From: an uncultured Spirochaetota bacterium
GTDB taxonomy: Bacteria > Spirochaetota > Spirochaetia > SZUA-6 > Fen-1364
Direction: 5' to 3'
Length of the DNA: 64,000 nucleotides
NCBI GenBank assembly: GCA_963734545.1
Contig: CAVTHO010000008.1
Location: 32,001-96,000 of the forward strand
The notes under the pieces are model-generated. The model had not been told where the DNA came from. It saw only the letters and a list, made by a program, of their open reading frames with translations, and ran no database searches. Made by a program: the position numbers and the translations under genes. This document shows positions 10,466 to 52,726 of the stretch, piece by piece; within the stretch, counting starts at the first letter, position 1, and every line of letters begins with the position of its first letter.

Positions 10466-10580
<115 letters not shown>

Positions 10581-10748
10581 AATATTATGCGCTAGGGAAT
10601 GAACGTGCTCTCGGCGTTTCTGACGAAACGCCTGCCGCACGAATGTCACGGAATACCGTGACCGCGGTGAACGAATCAGTCCGTACGGCCTTGCGGCCGC
10701 GCGTCTTTCTTTATTGGGCTTGCACCCTTTGAGAGCGATGAAAAATAT

Positions 10749-13755
<3,007 letters not shown>

Positions 13756-13929
13756 ATATTTTCCATCGTTCCCTTGCTTAGCACGTAATCCACGCCAGGT
13801 AATGACGTCGATCACGTCTCTTCTCCGCGGCTTCGCCTCTCAGGCCAGCTCCACCACGGACTCTCTTCACGCAACGCACGCCTGGTGCCATCCAGCGCAC
13901 GTTCGCGTATTCGTTCACCCTTCCCTAGA

Positions 13930-13941
13930 TTGTCAAAGAAC
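13930..13941 (-). promoter_or_regulatory. rrn boxA-like antitermination site in the ITS
   Basis: GTTCTTTGACAA on the minus strand; a similar GATCTTTGACAG occurs in the 16S leader (~16017-16028), each followed by a GGGAAGGG tract. Confidence 0.55.
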
Positions 13942-14008
13942 AGCCACAGCACGCGTATCTTGCCGATGTGATTTCTGCCGCGGTTCCCGCGGCGACATCG
14001 CGCCGCTC

Positions 14009-14084
14009 TGGTGGAGGTATGGGGACTTGAACCCCAGACCTATGGCTTGCAAAGCCACCGCTCTAGCCACTGAGCTATACCCCC
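14009..14084 (-). tRNA. tRNA-Ala(TGC) in the 16S-23S spacer
   Basis: GGGGGTATAGCTCAGTGGCTAGAGCGGTGGCTTTGCAAGCCATAGGTCTGGGGTTCAAGTCCCCATACCTCCACCA: cloverleaf, anticodon TGC, G3-U70, encoded CCA. Confidence 0.97.
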
Positions 14085-14310
14085 AGGCTTGGCCGCCGCA
14101 CCATCGCGCAACACTCCCGTCAGCATGGCTCGGCGGGTTTGTGCTGTGTACGGGATGCGGCATATATACAGAAAAGGGAGGAGAGTTTGAGAGAGAGCGA
14201 GCTATTCCGCGCTCGCTCTCGCCGTCCTGCTCTTCCACGCTTTCGCGTGGACTTGCGCAGGCCGGCTGCCGCTCGCACGGATTCGCGCCTCTGTATACAG
14301 AGGCGCTACT

Positions 14311-15864
<1,554 letters not shown>

Positions 15865-46771: not shown

Positions 46772-47763
46772 ATGGGCGACCAGGAAGAGGGAGCGCGCCT
46801 CGGCGCGCAGTTCGAGAAAGATCTCCTCGGACAAGATGCTCCTCATCCGCAGGTTCGAGGAGAAGGCCGCGCAGATGTACGGCCTGAAGAAGATCGGCGG
46901 CTTCTGCCACCTGTACATCGGGCAGGAAGCAGCCGGCTGTCGGCGCCATCGCCGCCATCGACCTTGCCAACGGACTACACCGTGGGCGCCTACCGTGACC
47001 ACGGCTACGCGCTGGCCTGCGGCATGGATCCCCGAGGGTCTCATGGCGGAGCTCTTCGGCAAGGCAACGGGATGCTCCAAGGGCAAGGGCGGCTCCATGC
47101 ACTTCTTCGACGCCGCAGCGGCACATGTTCGGCGGCAACGGCATCGTCGGCGCGCAGATCCCCGTGGCAACGGGCGTGGCCCTGAAGTGCCGCTACCGCA
47201 AGGACGGCGGCGTGGTGCTCTGCTGGTTCGGCGACGGCGCCATCCACCAGGGATCCTTCCACGAGAGCCTCAACATGGCCAAGATCTGGAACCTTCCCAT
47301 CATCTACATCTGCGAGAACAACCAGTACGGCATGGGCACCGACTTCCGCCGGGTCTCCTCGGTCACCGACTTCGTGGTCATGGGAGACTCCTACGGCATC
47401 CCGGGCAAGCAGGTGAACGGCATGGACGTGCTGGAGGTGTACCGGGAGGTCGAGCGAGGCCGCGGCGCGGGTCCGAACGGAGTCCACGCCCATGTTCCTG
47501 GAGATCAAGACCTACCGCTACCGGGGCCATTCGATGAGCGACCCGGCCAAGTACCGCACTCCGGAGGAGCTGGAATCCTACAAGAAGCAGGATCCGCATC
47601 CTGATCCTGAAGTCCAGGATGGAGGAGTCCGGCAATCTCACCGAGCGGCCAGTACGCGGCCATGGACGCGGAGTGCAAGGCGGTGTGCGACGACGCGGTG
47701 AAGTTCGCGGAGGAGAGCCCCGAGCCCGAGCCCTCCGCTCTGTACGAGGACGTGCTCGCATGA
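46772..47763 (+). CDS. pdhA: Pyruvate dehydrogenase E1 alpha (frameshifted)
   Basis: MLLIRRFEEK, GFCHLYIGQEA, GKGGSMH, GDGA...ENN, TYRYRGHSMSDP. Confidence 0.96.
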
Positions 47764-48742
47764 GCCTCGATCACCTTCCGGGAAGCCCTGCGTGCCGCCA
47801 TGGACGAGGAGATGGCGCGCGACGACTCGGTCATCCTCCTGGGCGAGGAGGTCGGCCAGTACAACGGCGCCTACAAGGTCAGCCAGGGACTGCTGGAGAA
47901 GTACGGGCCCGAGCGCGTCATCGACACGCCCATCTCGGAGGAGGGATTCACCGGCATCGGCATCGGCGCCGCGATGGCCGGTCTGCGTCCCATCGTCGAA
48001 TGGATGACCCTCAACTTCTCCCTGCAGGCCATGGACCAGGTCATCAGCAACGCGGCCAAGATGCGCTACATGTCCGGCGGCCAGTTCACCGTGCCCGATG
48101 GTCTTCCGCGGACCCAACGGCCCCGCGGAGTACCTGGGCGCCCAGCACTCCCAGGCGCTGCAGTCGCTCTACGCGCATTTTCCCGGCCTGAAGGTGGTGG
48201 CGCCCTCCACGCCCGCGGACGGCAAGGGCCTGCTGAAGGCCTCCATCCGGGACGACAACCCCGTGCTCTTCCTGGAATCGCGAGATGATGTACGGGGTGA
48301 AGGGCGAGGTGCCGGACGGCGAGCACCTCGTGCCCCTCGGCGTGGCCGAGGTGAAGCGCCCCGGGAAGGACGTGACCATCGTCAGCTTCTCCAAGCCCGT
48401 GCGCATGGTCCTGGAAGCGGCGGAGGCGCTTGCCGCGCGAGGGGATCGAGGCCGAGGTCGTGGACCTGCGCACCATACGGCCCCTGGACGAGAAGGCGAT
48501 CTACGACTCGGTGGTGAAGACGAATCGCTGCGTCGTCGTGGACGAGGCCATGGCCGTTTGCCAGCGTGGGCTCGCACGTGGCGTGGCTCGTCTCCCGCAA
48601 CTGCTTCGACGACCTGGACGCGGCGGTGGAGCTCGTCTCCGTCGGAGGACGTGCCCATGCCGTACAACCACTCCCTGGAGCTCGCCGCCCAGCCTTCGGT
48701 GGCCAAGATCGTCGAGGCGGTGAAAGGGTGCTGTATGCCTGA
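47760..48742 (+). CDS. pdhB: Pyruvate dehydrogenase E1 beta (frameshifted)
   Basis: [42 protein letters not shown]. Confidence 0.96.
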
Positions 48743-49995
48743 GAAGATCCTGATGATCGCCCTGTCTCCCACCATGGAGACCGGCACCCTCGCGCGGTGG
48801 CGGAAGAAGGAAGGGGACACGTCGCCAGCGGCGACGTGCTCTGCGAGGTGGAGACCGACAAGGCCACCATGGACTACGAGTCCAGCTGCCGAGGGAACTC
48901 TCCTCAAGATCCTGCTGCCCGAGGGCGGGCAGGCAAAGGTCGGAGACCTCATCGCCATCGTCGGAAAGCCGGGAGAGGACATCTCGGGGATCATGGCAGG
49001 GCTCGGCTCAGCGCCTGCCGTGGAGCATGCCCCTGCCCGGGGGGCGGCAGCGCCGTCAGCCCCGGCCTTGACGCCCGCGCCTGCGGGAGTCGCTTGCAGC
49101 CCCGAGCCCTTCCCTGAAAACAGGCGCGCCGGCGGGCAGGATCAAGTCCTCACCCCTTGCGCGCAAGGTCGCGGCCCAGAAGGGCGTCGACCTCCGCTCC
49201 CTCGCGGCTCGGGCCCCGCCGGAAGAATCGTGATGCGGGACCTGGAGAAGCTGCCCGCGGCACCGGCGCGTGAGCAGACTGGGGCCGCCATCGGCTCCCC
49301 TGCAGCCCGGCGCCGGCGACGAGGTCGTCCCCGTCTCACGGATGCGCAAGGTCATCGCAAAGCGGCTCTCGGAATCGATGTACAGCGCACCGCACTTCTA
49401 TCTCACCGTGGCGGTGGGCATGGACGAGCTTCTGGCCGCGCGCACGAAGATGAACGACGGGACGCGAGAAGAAGCTTTCCGTCAACGCGTTTCTCATGGC
49501 CATTGCGGGCAGGACGCTTGCCCGTCATCCGCAGGTCAACTCGACGTGGAACGGGGACACGTTCCTGCGGCACGCCGCGGCAGACATCGGCCTCGCGGTG
49601 GCGCTGCCGGACGGCCTGATCACCCCGTCGTGCGTGACTGCGGCCGCAAGGGCATCATCGCCATCGACGCGGAGCTCGCAGACCTCGTCGAAAGGGCACG
49701 CGCGGGCAAGCTCGCGCCGGAAGAGTACGCGGGAGCGACCTTCACCATCAGCAATCTCGGCATGGCGGGGATCGACGAGTTCACCGCCATCATCAACCCG
49801 CCCGGCTCCGCCATCCTCGCGGTGGGAGCGGTGCGCAAGGAAGTCGTAGTGGCGGAGAACGACGCGATGGTCGTCCGGCAGCGGATGCGCGTCACGCTCT
49901 CCTGCGATCACCGGGTCATCGACGGCGCGGTCGGCGCCGCGTTTCTCAGGGAGCTGGCGGACATGCTGGAGAATCCGCTGCTCGCCCTTGCCTGA
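48735..49995 (+). CDS. pdhC: Dihydrolipoamide acetyltransferase E2 (frameshifted)
   Basis: LSPTMETG, EVETDKATM lipoyl site, SPLARK, TFTISNLG, IINPP, CDHRVIDGA. Confidence 0.96.
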
Positions 49996-50022
49996 GCCGT
50001 TCCCTGACACGGAGGAGACACA

Positions 50023-51416
50023 ATGGCAGGCTTCGATTTCGACGTTCTCATCATGGGCTCGGGTCCCGGCGGGTACGTGGCCGGCATCCGCGCTGCCCAG
50101 CTCGGCCTGAAGGCCGCCGTCATCGAGCGGGACAAGGTGGGCGGGGTGTGCCTGAACATCGGCTGCATCCCTTCCAAGGCGCTGATCCACCAGGCCGAGC
50201 TCTTCCGCTCCCTGCCCGCCCTGAAGGAAATGGGCATCGCGGTGGACGTGAAGGGACTTCGACTACTCGAAGGTGTTCGACAAGTCCCGCAAGGCGGCGG
50301 ACACGCTCTCCAAGGGTGTGCAGTTCCTGCTGAAGAAGTACAAGGCGGAGCTCATCACGGGGGACGCCGTCCTTCTCGGGAAGGAACGAGGTCACCCTCA
50401 AGGACGGGAAGAAGATCACCGGGAAGAACATCATCATCGCCACCGGCTCCCGGCCCCGCGTCATCCCGGGCTTCGAGTTCGACGAGAAGCAGGTGCTCTC
50501 TTCCACGGGCGCGCTCATGCTCAAGAAGCTGCCGAAAAAGGCGATCATCCTCGGCGCGGGGGCCATCGGCGTGGAGTTCAGCCACGTCTGGAACTCGTTC
50601 GGCGTCGAGGTGCACCTGGTGGAAATGATGGACCGGATCCTCCCCCTGGAGGACGCGGAGGCGGTCCAGGTCCTTGCGCGCAGCTTCCAGAAGCGGGGCG
50701 TGCAGATGTACACGGGGACAAAGGCTGTCTCCCTGCAGAAGGCAAAAGCCGGAGTGAGCGTCGTCCTGGAGGACAAGGCCGGCGCACGCACGACCCTCGA
50801 GGCGGACCTGATCCTCGTGGTCGTCGGCCGCACGTGCAACACGGACGGCATCGGGCTGGACAAGGTGGGCATCGCCACGGAGAAGGGCTTCATCCCCGTG
50901 GGGGACTACAACCAGACGAAGGTCCCCGGCATCTACGCCATCGGGGACGTCGTGGCCACTCCCCTCCTGGCGCACGTGGCGTTCAAGGAGGCGGAGATGG
51001 TGGTCGAGCACCTGGCCGGCAAATCCCCGGCGCCGCGCCTCGACCCCCTCTCCATCCCCGGGGCCACCTACTGCGAGCCGCAGGTGGCCAGCTTCGGCCT
51101 TACCGAGTGGAAAGCCGTGGAACAGAAAGTGCCGTTCGCCAAGGCGAGCTTCCCCTACCGTGGCGCGGGGAAGTCGGTGGCCATCGAGCAGTCAGAAGGA
51201 TTCGTGAAGGTCATCTACGATCCGAAGACAAAGGAGATCCTCGGCGCCCACGTGGTGGGCGCGGAAGCCACGGAGCTCATCCACGAGCTGCTGCTCGCGC
51301 GCACCGCCGAGCTCCTGCCCGAGGACATCGCCAACATGATCCACGCGCACCCCACCCTCTCGGAGGCTGTCATGGAGTCCATGCGCGCCGTGGAGGGCTG
51401 GAATATTCACGTGTAG
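50023..51416 (+). CDS. lpdA: Dihydrolipoamide dehydrogenase E3 (frameshifted)
   Basis: [43 protein letters not shown]. Confidence 0.97.
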
Positions 51417-51572
51417 TCAGGGATGACGCAAGTCGGCCGAGGACAGGGATGTCCGAAAGGCCGACTGTAGCCATGGATGGCGAAGGCGCGCGAGGCCAGG
51501 GATGGCCGAAAGCGCGCCTGTAGCCATGGATGGCGAAGGCGCGCGAGGCCAGGGATGGCCGAAAGCGCGCCT
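51413..51572 (+). repeat. Tandem array of three 53-54-nt structured units with GGA-loop hairpins, plus a partial fourth unit to ~51608
   Basis: Units 2 and 3 (51467-51519, 51520-51572) are identical: GTAGCCATGGATGGCGAAGGCGCGCGAGGCCAGGGATGGCCGAAAGCGCGCCT. Unit 1 (51413-51466) differs almost only by compensatory stem changes. Confidence 0.92.
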
Positions 51573-51604
51573 GTAGCCAAGGCCGACTGTAGCCCGGACG
51601 CCGG

Positions 51605-51877
51605 CTACCCGACGGCTTTCCGCGGGGGCCGTGTCGCCGCTTCCAGATCCGCAAGCAGCGTGAGGGCCTCCGCAGGGGACCGTCCGCACATGTCCCCCGA
51701 CGGCTGCAGCCGGAGGCACACGGCCGGCCTTTCAGCGCGACCGAAGAGGCCGCAGCGGTTATCCCAGGAGAGCTGGACGCAGCGCACCCCGGCCGGCTTC
51801 CCGTCCGGCATGCCGGGGATGGAGGAGGAAATCGAGGGCGCAATGCAGCACGCTCCGCAGCCGATCCTGCACTTCAT
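51605..51877 (-). CDS. YkgJ-family Cys-cluster protein
   Basis: MKCRIGCGACCIAPSISSSIPGMPDGKPAGVRCVQL...C..FGRAERPAVC. Confidence 0.9.
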   Translation of the reverse strand: MKCRIGCGACCIAPSISSSIPGMPDGKPAGVRCVQLSWDNRCGLFGRAERPAVCLRLQPSGDMCGRSPAEALTLLADLEAATRPPRKAVG

Positions 51878-51957
51878 AGGTCTCCCCTGAGGATATCTGA
51901 TCCGCGAAAAGGGGAACAGCCCTTGCATGACGGGAGAAAATCGACGATCCTGAGCGC

Positions 51958-52368
51958 ATGGTGCGGATCATCGTCAGCATGCTGCTGCTCGTCGTGCTCG
52001 CGGTGCTCGTTTCCTTCAATCTTGGATTTACCACATCCATCAGCCTGTTCGGCGCCCGGTTCGACCAGGTGCCGGTGATGGCCGTCGCGCTGTTGAGCTT
52101 TGCTACGGGCGTTCTCTATTCGTTGTTCCTCTACATCGGCCGGTTCCTGCACACGAAGAAGAGGGAGCACCTGGCCCGGAGGGACAAGGAAATCAGCGAA
52201 CGGGAACGCAAGCTCGCCGAGCGCGAATCCGAGAAGAGCCAGGCAGCGGTGACCGCGGCGGAAGCAGAGGTCGCGCGCGCGGCATCCCCGGAGAACACCG
52301 AAAAGTCGGGCCCTGCAAAGCGCACCTGGCGTGAACGGTTTTCCCGGTTCTTCAATCCGGACAGCTGA
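51958..52368 (+). CDS. LapA/DUF1049-like small membrane protein
   Basis: TM-N-...-P-TM followed by a charged coiled coil. Confidence 0.7.
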   Translation: MVRIIVSMLLLVVLAVLVSFNLGFTTSISLFGARFDQVPVMAVALLSFATGVLYSLFLYIGRFLHTKKREHLARRDKEISERERKLAERESEKSQAAVTAAEAEVARAASPENTEKSGPAKRTWRERFSRFFNPDS

Positions 52369-52462
52369 CCCCACGCACAAAACCTGTCAGATAAATTCGA
52401 CAGGGAAATCAACCAATCACTGACAGCTCCTTTCCCCCGCGCGTCGTATCCTTGCCTCAGGT

Positions 52463-52726
52463 ATGAAGGGAATCGCCGTGGAAAAAACGATCGCGGAATG
52501 TGCGGAGCGAATCATCACACTCCTGGCGAAGCTGGGCGAGGCGAACATCCTGCGCCTCTCCGAGCATCTCGCTGAAAGAAACGTGATCACCTACCAGGCC
52601 CTCGGTTGGCTGGCCAAGGAAGGGAGGATCAGCTATCAGCAGCTGGGAAACCAGGTATACGTCGCCCTGCACAGGGACGCACCGCCGCCTTCTGATGATT
52701 CCGCGGGTGAAAGGAGCTCACGATGA
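52463..52726 (+). CDS. Small winged-helix protein (DUF2582-like)
   Basis: 87 aa with the YQALGWLAKEGRI motif. Confidence 0.75.
   Translation: MKGIAVEKTIAECAERIITLLAKLGEANILRLSEHLAERNVITYQALGWLAKEGRISYQQLGNQVYVALHRDAPPPSDDSAGERSSR

Follow-up and report, generated by a model that had tools for sequence, protein, structure and literature searches.

A dispersed two-hairpin repeat with CsrA-type GGA loops, found as a tandem array behind lpdA in a spirochaete genome

The window that we analysed is a stretch of 64,000 nucleotides from an uncultured Spirochaetota bacterium (GenBank assembly GCA_963734545.1, contig CAVTHO010000008.1, positions 32,001 to 96,000), and our subject is a tandem array of hairpins with GGA loops that begins in the stop codon of its lpdA gene. 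We found that the units of this array are copies of a REP-like (repetitive extragenic palindrome-like), non-coding interspersed element, which is present in every genome examined of the host's taxonomic family, and whose hairpins fall in the same sequence class as a hairpin in the leaders of the flagellin gene flaB. The original prediction was that the array is a CsrA sponge or stability element in the 3' untranslated region (UTR) of a pdh operon, built from a dispersed repeat and coupling pdh transcription to the availability of CsrA. The dispersed repeat is borne out, by at least 91 matches in the host genome and by all 25 family genomes. Coupling at the level of this locus is not, since the array is missing at lpdA in all ten relatives that could be read. 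For the proposal that the repeat displays functional CsrA sites in transcripts, our analysis leaves the scales about level. The family is a spirochaete counterpart of TwoAYGGAY, joining the habits of GTAG REPs to TwoAYGGAY-like loops in an architecture of its own. No such spirochaete element is described in the literature that we searched on CsrA together with REPs, AYGGAY motifs or repeats.

Distribution and structure of the repeat unit

In the host genome (G000; 5.14 Mb, 63% G+C, 10 contigs), iterated nhmmer searches of both strands returned 82 matches. An alignment of 37 full units (A1) was used to build a covariance model (R1), which, with 150 first-look candidates scored, gave at least 91 matches at E<=0.01 in about 75 loci. 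R1 matches occur in all 21 genomes of the genus (10-82 each) and in every one of the 24 family genomes other than that of the host, so that the count is 25 of 25 with the host included. Weaker matches were obtained in 4 of 21 genomes of another family, f6, and one match apiece in both genomes of f4, while R1 had no match in f7 (0/24), f2 (0/5), f3 (0/2), f5 (0/8) or f8 (0/5).

Each unit folds on one strand into a hairpin A followed by a stem, P1, around a hairpin B, and the two hairpins are spaced 26-28 nt. Over the three helices of A1, 89.8% of the cells are paired, against 69.7% in shuffles and 27-34% in controls with slid partners, and both sides change in 10 of the 17 pairs. For a second set of 35 matches, drawn from three further genera of the family and from two f6 genomes, the corresponding values are 93.5% against 67.9%, with two-sided changes in 13 of the 17 pairs, in an alignment that was fitted to R1 and is hence biased towards the model. 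As the copies are paralogues, this covariation shows only that foldable variants persist or amplify, and not that each copy is selected in place.

The loop bases C, G, G and A and the closing G are invariant in both hairpins of all 37 units; the A before N is present in 36 of 37 units in hairpin A and in 37 of 37 in hairpin B, and the base after GGA is T in 25/37 and 28/37 units, respectively. The effective motif is an A-N-G-G-A-N loop closed by C-G. When the loops are read as AYGGAY, the first Y is C or T in 18/37 units (hairpin A) and 11/37 (hairpin B), and the last Y in 33/37 in both. The loop GGA was expected to be kept in other copies, and it is, including those of other genera and of one other family. 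A tandem G.A/A.G occupies the middle of the stem in the commonest P1 subfamily, and the non-Watson-Crick cells of A1 comprise 43 G.A/A.G and no C.T/T.C. Because of this asymmetry, we conclude that it is the GGA strand on which the fold is preserved, in the form of RNA or of single-stranded DNA (ssDNA).

The array at the 3' end of lpdA

Tandem Repeats Finder places the array at 51412-51579 (period 53, 3.2 copies, 89% matches, score 250), and by direct reading it consists of three head-to-tail units of 53-54 nt each, followed by a deleted fourth unit and a GTAG palindrome. The four copies counted earlier are thus corrected to 3.2, with no full fourth unit. The gap between the TAG stop of lpdA and the stop of a convergent gene with a CxxCxxCC domain consists entirely of repeat material. 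The features, in window coordinates, are as follows (ORF, open reading frame).

50493..51416, + strand: ORF matching TIGR01350 positions 158-461 (lpdA)
51414..51416, + strand: lpdA stop codon TAG of that ORF, coinciding with positions 2-4 of unit 1
51413..51466, + strand: unit 1, 54 nt, stem P1 of the GTCGGCC type (R1, 60.3 bits)
51416..51427, + strand: hairpin A of unit 1, 4-bp stem, loop GGGA, GGA at 51421-51423 (sequence and fold)
51441..51454, + strand: hairpin B of unit 1, 5-bp stem, GGA at 51447-51449, inside P1 51431-51438 / 51459-51466
51467..51519, + strand: unit 2, 53 nt, stem P1 of the GGCGCGC type (R1, 68.1 bits)
51470..51481, + strand: hairpin A of unit 2, GGA at 51475-51477 (sequence and fold)
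51494..51507, + strand: hairpin B of unit 2, GGA at 51500-51502, inside P1 51484-51491 / 51512-51519
51520..51572, + strand: unit 3, same sequence as unit 2 (BLAST, 100% over 53 nt; R1, 80.1 bits)
51523..51534, + strand: hairpin A of unit 3 (sequence and fold)
51547..51560, + strand: hairpin B of unit 3, inside P1 51537-51544 / 51565-51572 (sequence and fold)
51573..51588, + strand: internally deleted unit, 16 nt (read from the sequence)
51589..51608, no strand: palindrome, 20 nt (6-bp arms, 8-nt loop), starting with GTAG on both strands (sequence and ORFs)
51605..51928, - strand: convergent gene, 107 aa, CxxCxxCC putative metal-chelating domain (PF03692, 25.6 bits)

The array starts inside the lpdA stop codon, as had been proposed, since the TAG at 51414-51416 closes the lpdA frame, and the last base of this codon is the first paired base of hairpin A in unit 1. 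The six GGA hairpins lie at the positions that the original prediction gave them, and its compensatory changes, by which unit 1 departs from units 2/3 in each of the three stems, are confirmed. The 16 nt at 51573-51588 appear to be the first 7 nt of a unit fused to the last 9 nt of a P1 arm of the unit-1 type, a composition by which the block of units 2-3 plus 7 nt is bounded by a 9-nt direct repeat; this direct repeat derives from unit 1. On the minus strand, the TAG of the palindrome (51605-51607; CTA on the plus strand) is the stop of the convergent gene, whose transcript, on read-through, would hold the array in antisense. The plus strand of the array folds at -130.9 kcal/mol (z -5.38), with 0 of 200 shuffles as good; the minus strand also folds well (-119.6, z -5.83), but its absolute energy is weaker.

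Upstream of the array, the operon holds pieces of E1_dh, pieces of Transketolase_C and lpdA. It is a 2-oxo-acid dehydrogenase operon on this evidence, which does not reach as far as the pdh identity proposed for it. In the assembly this operon (window 46836-51416) is frame-broken at several places: lpdA is split, with 50023-50628 matching profile positions 2-71, 50493-51416 matching positions 158-461 and the middle in a third frame, and the E1 genes read as overlapping ORF pieces. The frame breaks may be sequencing indels or pseudogenes. Elsewhere in the window there is a complete rRNA operon (10466-15863, minus strand) with 5S, 23S, a spacer tRNA and 16S.

All ten relatives readable at this point lack a unit at the lpdA stop, even G014 with its 94% identical lpdA DNA; an eleventh relative, whose lpdA locus is cut, stands outside this count. 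In nine of these ten array-free relatives lpdA ends in TAG, the preceding base being G, A, T or C, and because they share the TAG, this stop pre-dates the array, which was inserted directly after it. The array is a recent, lineage-specific insertion, and its presence at lpdA is incidental. Genome G011 has a unit of the same family (L015 2907-2956, minus strand; 45.7 bits) in sense orientation about 1.4 kb from the lpdA stop; as this unit lies at the other end of lpdA, the operon was struck at a different place in another species. That a sponge or stability element was selected in this 3' UTR to couple pdh transcription to CsrA is accordingly hard to credit, and we give it very little probability. 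Six sense GGA hairpins do follow lpdA and both csrA and fliW are present in the genome, but the stop is unit-free in all ten relatives, G014 included, the same element lies behind at least 24 unrelated genes, and the lpdA frame is itself broken in the assembly.

The hairpin matches a conserved element of flagellin leaders

In systems with FliW, the main target of CsrA is the flagellin mRNA. Both csrA (87.7 bits) and fliW, as looked for on the strength of the original prediction, are present in the genome and adjoin each other, downstream of an ORF that by its look resembles flgL; the best solved relative of this CsrA is the FliW-bound CsrA 5DMB_D. The same gene order is reported for T. denticola (PMC9481697). 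The consensus of CsrA sites from systematic evolution of ligands by exponential enrichment (SELEX) is RUACARGGAUGU, with ACA and GGA fully conserved and GGA in a hairpin loop (PMC4347634). Another paper (PMC8668096) states that Leptospira CsrA shifts flaB 5' UTR RNA in electrophoretic mobility shift assays only when GGA is intact, and cites Borrelia flaB as a CsrA target.

A strict C-A-N-G-G-A-N-G hairpin is present in three of the four flaB leaders of the host genome (G000 C4:25397-25410, C4:26596-26613 and C7:775913-775931), with GGA at -31 or -33, and all four have a Shine-Dalgarno (SD) GGA at -10. The cores of two flaB leader hairpins are letter-identical to cores of repeat units. Five genomes from other genera that have the repeat show the hairpin in 14 of 15 leaders, and five genomes of five repeat-free families show it in 11 of 12 distinct leaders, two loci with the same leader being counted once in the latter. 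The total comes to 28 of 31 flaB leaders in six families of the order, with positions from -31 to -42; the GGA of the hairpin stands at about -33 and is accompanied by the SD GGA at -10. As the genome holds 563 strict hairpins on both strands of its 5.14 Mb, or about one in a thousand per 20-nt window, chance does not account for the hairpin in the flaB leaders. On the leaders compared, the hairpin is an old and conserved part of flagellin leaders in the order. Its position is that of the upstream CsrA site of B. subtilis hag, and by analogy with hag and with flaB of Borrelia and Leptospira we infer that it is the CsrA site of these organisms. In one leader, the hairpin and the sequence 3' to it are so like the beginning of a repeat unit as to suggest that the repeat arose from, or converged on, this site. 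In genome G023, no co-variation was found between repeats and flaB leaders at the base after GGA, which is G in the repeats and T in the leaders.

The phyletic pattern of csrA is compatible with that of the repeat, and does not discriminate between explanations: in f7, csrA occurs in 1 of 24 genomes and the repeat in none, and five csrA-bearing families are also without the repeat. Many of the 24 f7 genomes, 23 of which lack csrA, are closed, and f7 may be a non-flagellated lineage. We know of no established RNA sponge in bacteria whose CsrA is controlled by FliW (B. subtilis, Campylobacter, spirochaetes), and the literature that we searched on CsrA with repeats yielded none for FliW-type CsrA.

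Position relative to stop codons

For the analysis of positions, we used 75 loci with 95 hits (the nhmmer hits plus 13 hits by the model only) and gene calls from a crude caller of our own (4178 genes, 81% coding). The 5' tetramer of full units (n=43) is GTAG in 33, ATAG in 6 and CTAG in 4, and that of units in sister genera is CTAG, CAAG, CTGG, AAGG or GGAG. At 24 of the 75 loci the element starts at most 6 nt from a co-oriented stop, mostly sharing its TAG; a further 14 loci lie 7-45 nt from a stop, several of them behind a nested hairpin that starts on the stop itself. Pfam domains were found in 19 of 20 abutted ORFs, which include Rho, Lon, a class II aminoacyl-tRNA synthetase, a PfkB kinase, two OmpR-type regulators, a GAF histidine kinase and a radical SAM enzyme. 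Twenty further genomes of the genus were compared at their 28 top-scoring loci. There, a frame of at least 80 open codons ends at the TAG of the element in 20 cases, and the two alternative frames reach this length in 6 and 15. In about a third of the loci in the host genome, including lpdA, the TAG of the element is the pre-existing stop of a real upstream gene. The 58 intergenic loci comprise 23 between convergent and 5 between divergent genes, compared with 418 and 589 of 2495 intergenic regions in the background.

Stop usage in the host genome (4172 called) is 1284 TAG (31%), 2490 TGA and 398 TAA, and GTAG is the commonest context of TAG, with 573 cases. Either this abundance gives the element many places to land, or it is a relic of earlier turnover.

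Turnover and nested modules

At the rho stop codon, elements of the family are found in four relatives with a TAG stop and in none with a TGA stop, of which there is one. When six orthologous post-stop sites were compared with three to five sister genomes, they usually held a different member, a different module or nothing, and the orthologous sites in G014, G002 and G018 are mostly occupied by other family members or rearranged. The arrays are mosaics of different subfamilies. Single units frequently have the same tetramer at both ends, though it varies from copy to copy, such as ATAG/ATAG at three loci of the host genome and CAAG/CAAG, CTGG/CTGG and AAGG/AAGG in other genera, and these matching tetramers look like a 4-bp target duplication. 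In one filled/empty pair (C9:188778 versus G002) the inserted DNA does not lie at a TAG and has a partial unit on its 5' flank, and the sites compared point to no single insertion mechanism. The unit consensus shows no visible terminal inverted repeat, and one truncated 5' half (C10:151858) has no matching 3' half nearby. Element strand set against the sign of the GC skew gives 19/11 and 21/24, where the skew is weak and not informative on the replication-strand bias that HUH or ssDNA transposition would lead one to expect.

Hairpin repeats nested in one another form mosaics in the intergenic regions of G000. Besides the unit described here, there is a second module, which forms a 6-7 bp hairpin of the CCGCGG type with a TAYY loop and has 142 regular-expression matches in this genome (for example C5:237912-237940 and C7:158167-158195); it is often nested in hairpin A, immediately before the GGA, or stands alone after GTAG. 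Other modules lie within the arms of hairpin B, such as one starting GGGCGGCAGGCG with 45 matches. Three near-identical composites (C4:545290-545400, C4:588718-588830 and C9:67451-67580) contain a full unit within a hairpin repeat of the GCCGCCCGAAGGGCGGC type, an uninterrupted copy of which occurs near them, and these composites seem to have been copied as wholes.

Comparison with known families

The nearest Rfam family is TwoAYGGAY (RF01731), whose alignment spans hairpin B of unit 2 and hairpin A of unit 3 and scores 26.5 bits. The Rfam search suggested earlier thus leads to a family of the Csr/Rsm clan (CL00106), but below threshold, the gathering score being 43. Both elements have two hairpins with loops much like CA-UGGA-UG, the reading of the aligned consensus. 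According to a 2026 preprint, TwoAYGGAY is multicopy in Pseudomonas (medians 11-23, up to 202), varies between strains and adjoins REP arrays; its loops are proposed there as Csr/Rsm sites, and its expansion is described as mobile-element-like, the link being left unresolved. The repeat resembles this picture in being multicopy, variable between relatives, linked to other repeats and a proposed binder of Csr/Rsm proteins. It differs in that its P1 encloses hairpin B only and leaves hairpin A outside, with no common basal stem, and in its head-to-tail units of 53 nt that start at a stop codon, whereas the Pseudomonas elements are divergent doublets. The hosts differ as well, with gamma-proteobacteria, Clostridiales and gut metagenomes in the description of the family (PMC2864571) and Spirochaetota here. 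We consider it most improbable that the array is a divergent TwoAYGGAY member acting as a free-standing small RNA (sRNA) with its own promoter and terminator. In its favour, Rfam gave no match other than TwoAYGGAY, the consensus of which hardly differs from the hairpin sequences, and multiple copies with mobile-element-like behaviour are reported for TwoAYGGAY in Pseudomonas. However, the match falls short of the gathering score and exists only across a unit junction, 120 kb including five repeat-rich loci contained no match at the gathering threshold, the two hairpins share no basal stem, and the array begins inside a stop codon. Moreover, no promoter-like site was found, and the single terminator-like site in 50900-52500 is far from the array.

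Di Nocera et al. (2013; PMC3733652) place GTAG REPs downstream of ORFs, between unidirectional or convergent genes, with termini that often give a TAG stop and a species-specific distribution like that of mobile DNA. The repeat likewise has a GTAG tag at one end, lies mainly between unidirectional or convergent genes, often supplies a TAG stop by its tag and is species-specific in its distribution. In contrast to the single palindrome of 20-40 bp in GTAG REPs, it is a 53-nt element of two hairpins (three helices) with conserved loops; the G of its tag pairs with C15 in 37 of 37 units, whereas the REP tag is unpaired, and its arrays are direct tandems. In that paper, Spirochaetes are listed only with CGTC repeats. 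The model of the REP-associated tyrosine transposase (RAYT), NF047646, found no gene over cut-off in any of the 25 family genomes, whose completeness is 60-99%, the best score being 37.5 against 80 bits. The one Y1 gene of the host genome is IS200/IS605 (145.6 bits), no repeat copy was found at any of 20 Y1 loci of the genus, and Y1 (IS200) genes are absent from 9 of the 21 repeat-bearing genomes of the genus. The IS200/IS605 gene of the host (G000 C4:159537-160019; L002 1408-1890, minus strand) has near-identical 19-nt palindromes around it, 524 nt apart, and is unrelated to the repeat. The check for RAYT genes by the repeat copies, which the original prediction called for, therefore shows no association, and of its GTAG-type REP alternative the stop-codon tag and the 3' location stand while the RAYT link falls.

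An ordinary GTAG REP mobilised by RAYT has, in our view, only a slight chance of being the right description. The tetramer GTAG in 33 of 43 full units, the location downstream of ORFs with enrichment between convergent genes (23/58 loci versus 418/2495) and the stop codons supplied by the tag speak for it. Against it are the missing RAYT (0/25, although several genomes are incomplete), a lone Y1 gene of the IS200/IS605 kind with 0 of 20 genus Y1 loci holding a repeat, the two-hairpin unit of 53 nt in place of one palindrome of 20-40 bp, head-to-tail arrays and not inverted dimers, and a tag other than GTAG in sister genera.

With CsrB, CsrC and RsmX-Z the repeat has in common several GGA hairpins per transcript, six in the array if it is one RNA, 26-28 nt apart. 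It differs from them in having no match to them in Rfam, in being a dispersed 3' UTR repeat and no separate gene, and in a host CsrA of the FliW type. CsrA sites of flagellin leaders are also known from BS1/BS2 of hag and from flaB of Borrelia and Leptospira, and in sequence class the hairpins of the repeat agree with those of 28 of the 31 flaB leaders of the order. In flagellin leaders, however, the hairpin is paired with a GGA that overlaps the SD and controls translation initiation, whereas the sites of the repeat come after the stop codon and therefore do not block initiation of the host gene. Pneumococcal BOX and mycobacterial MIRU elements also consist of short head-to-tail units in operons or 3' regions, and MIRU overlaps neighbouring stops. 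The repeat shares with both the short head-to-tail units and with MIRU the overlap of stop codons, but has no sequence relation to them, and GGA loops are, to our knowledge, not known from either family.

CsrA sites or selfish DNA

We favour the reading in which the repeat displays functional CsrA sites in transcripts, though with no better than even confidence. Each unit would carry two decoy copies of the flaB-type CsrA site, 26-28 nt apart, and the array, when transcribed as the lpdA 3' UTR, would display six such sites. By binding CsrA dimers, this RNA would compete with flaB for CsrA or else bring CsrA to the host mRNA, and its G+C-rich stems would serve as a barrier to 3' exonucleases, like those of REPs; the element itself would spread as selfish DNA through some mobilising enzyme. 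Any effect on CsrA would be a property of the whole family and not of the pdh locus. The match of the hairpins to the conserved flaB leader hairpin strengthens this reading, and the following observations weigh against it. Only CA is invariant in the repeat, and the ACA of the SELEX consensus is not, since an A precedes CA only where the stem of the unit has one there, as in hairpin B of unit 1. Neither terminator-like nor promoter-like sites were found beside the array, the lpdA stop of the ten relatives is bare, and most csrA-bearing families of the order are without the repeat. The Hag-FliW-CsrA loop of B. subtilis runs at about 1:1:1, so that the addition of some 180 sites of high affinity should upset it. 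The upstream gene is co-oriented at 45 of the 58 intergenic loci, which agrees with the sense orientation looked for on the original prediction, but the bias can be explained by the TAG-stop tag and does not survive removal of the stop-abutting loci: more than 30 nt from stops, in co-directional gene pairs, 9 loci are sense and 9 antisense, and 7 of ten loci within called ORFs are antisense. The sense bias comes from the coincidence of tag and stop codons and is therefore no independent sign of RNA function, and selection for transcribed sense is not visible. Many copies have nested hairpin modules in their loops or arms, and the turnover at orthologous post-stop sites is the behaviour of selfish DNA. 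It is the lack of sense bias away from stops, together with turnover between species, that weakens the CsrA reading.

The repeat may instead be a purely selfish, REP-like structured element, at most a stabiliser or barrier at mRNA 3' ends, with a likeness to CsrA sites that has no regulatory consequence; its GGA loops would then be read on ssDNA by a mobilising enzyme, or be inherited from a master copy. This explanation is possible, although we rate it clearly below even. It is favoured by copy numbers from 10 to 82 among species of one genus, by a presence at lpdA that varies between close relatives, by the turnover of orthologous sites, by arrays that are mosaics of subfamilies and nested modules, by host genes as functionally unrelated as Rho, Lon, a class II aminoacyl-tRNA synthetase, response regulators and others, and by the 9:9 orientation away from stop codons. 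In addition, abutment on TAG stops is already known from GTAG REPs (PMC3733652), and the excess of G.A over C.T is equally compatible with ssDNA. On the other hand, the loops are conserved over two families while the stems and the terminal tetramer vary, and transposases usually read ends. The loop and its closing pair are the same as in the flaB hairpin of 28 of the 31 leaders, including those of repeat-free lineages. Moreover, no candidate enzyme was found, with no RAYT over cut-off in the 25 genomes and IS200 absent from 9 of the 21 repeat-bearing genomes of the genus.

Possible implications for CsrA regulation in the family

A more far-reaching form of the CsrA reading is that a mobile repeat captured, or converged on, the flagellin CsrA hairpin, and that about 180 copies of it form an RNA-level sink or recruitment network for a CsrA of the FliW type, which has no known RNA antagonist; we put this forward only tentatively. 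Within a single spirochaete family, operons with housekeeping or regulatory roles would bear the sites of this network in their 3' UTRs. If so, flagellin translation would depend on how strongly unrelated genes are transcribed overall, and this link could be adjusted from species to species by copy number. The repeat family multiplies the flagellin-type site about 45-fold over the four flaB leaders, across many mRNAs. If CsrA binds these sites, mobile DNA rewires a global post-transcriptional regulator, in parallel to the unproven proposal for TwoAYGGAY elements in Pseudomonas. If it does not, the repeat is still a new and unusual REP-like family of Spirochaetota, which lands on TAG stops without a RAYT.

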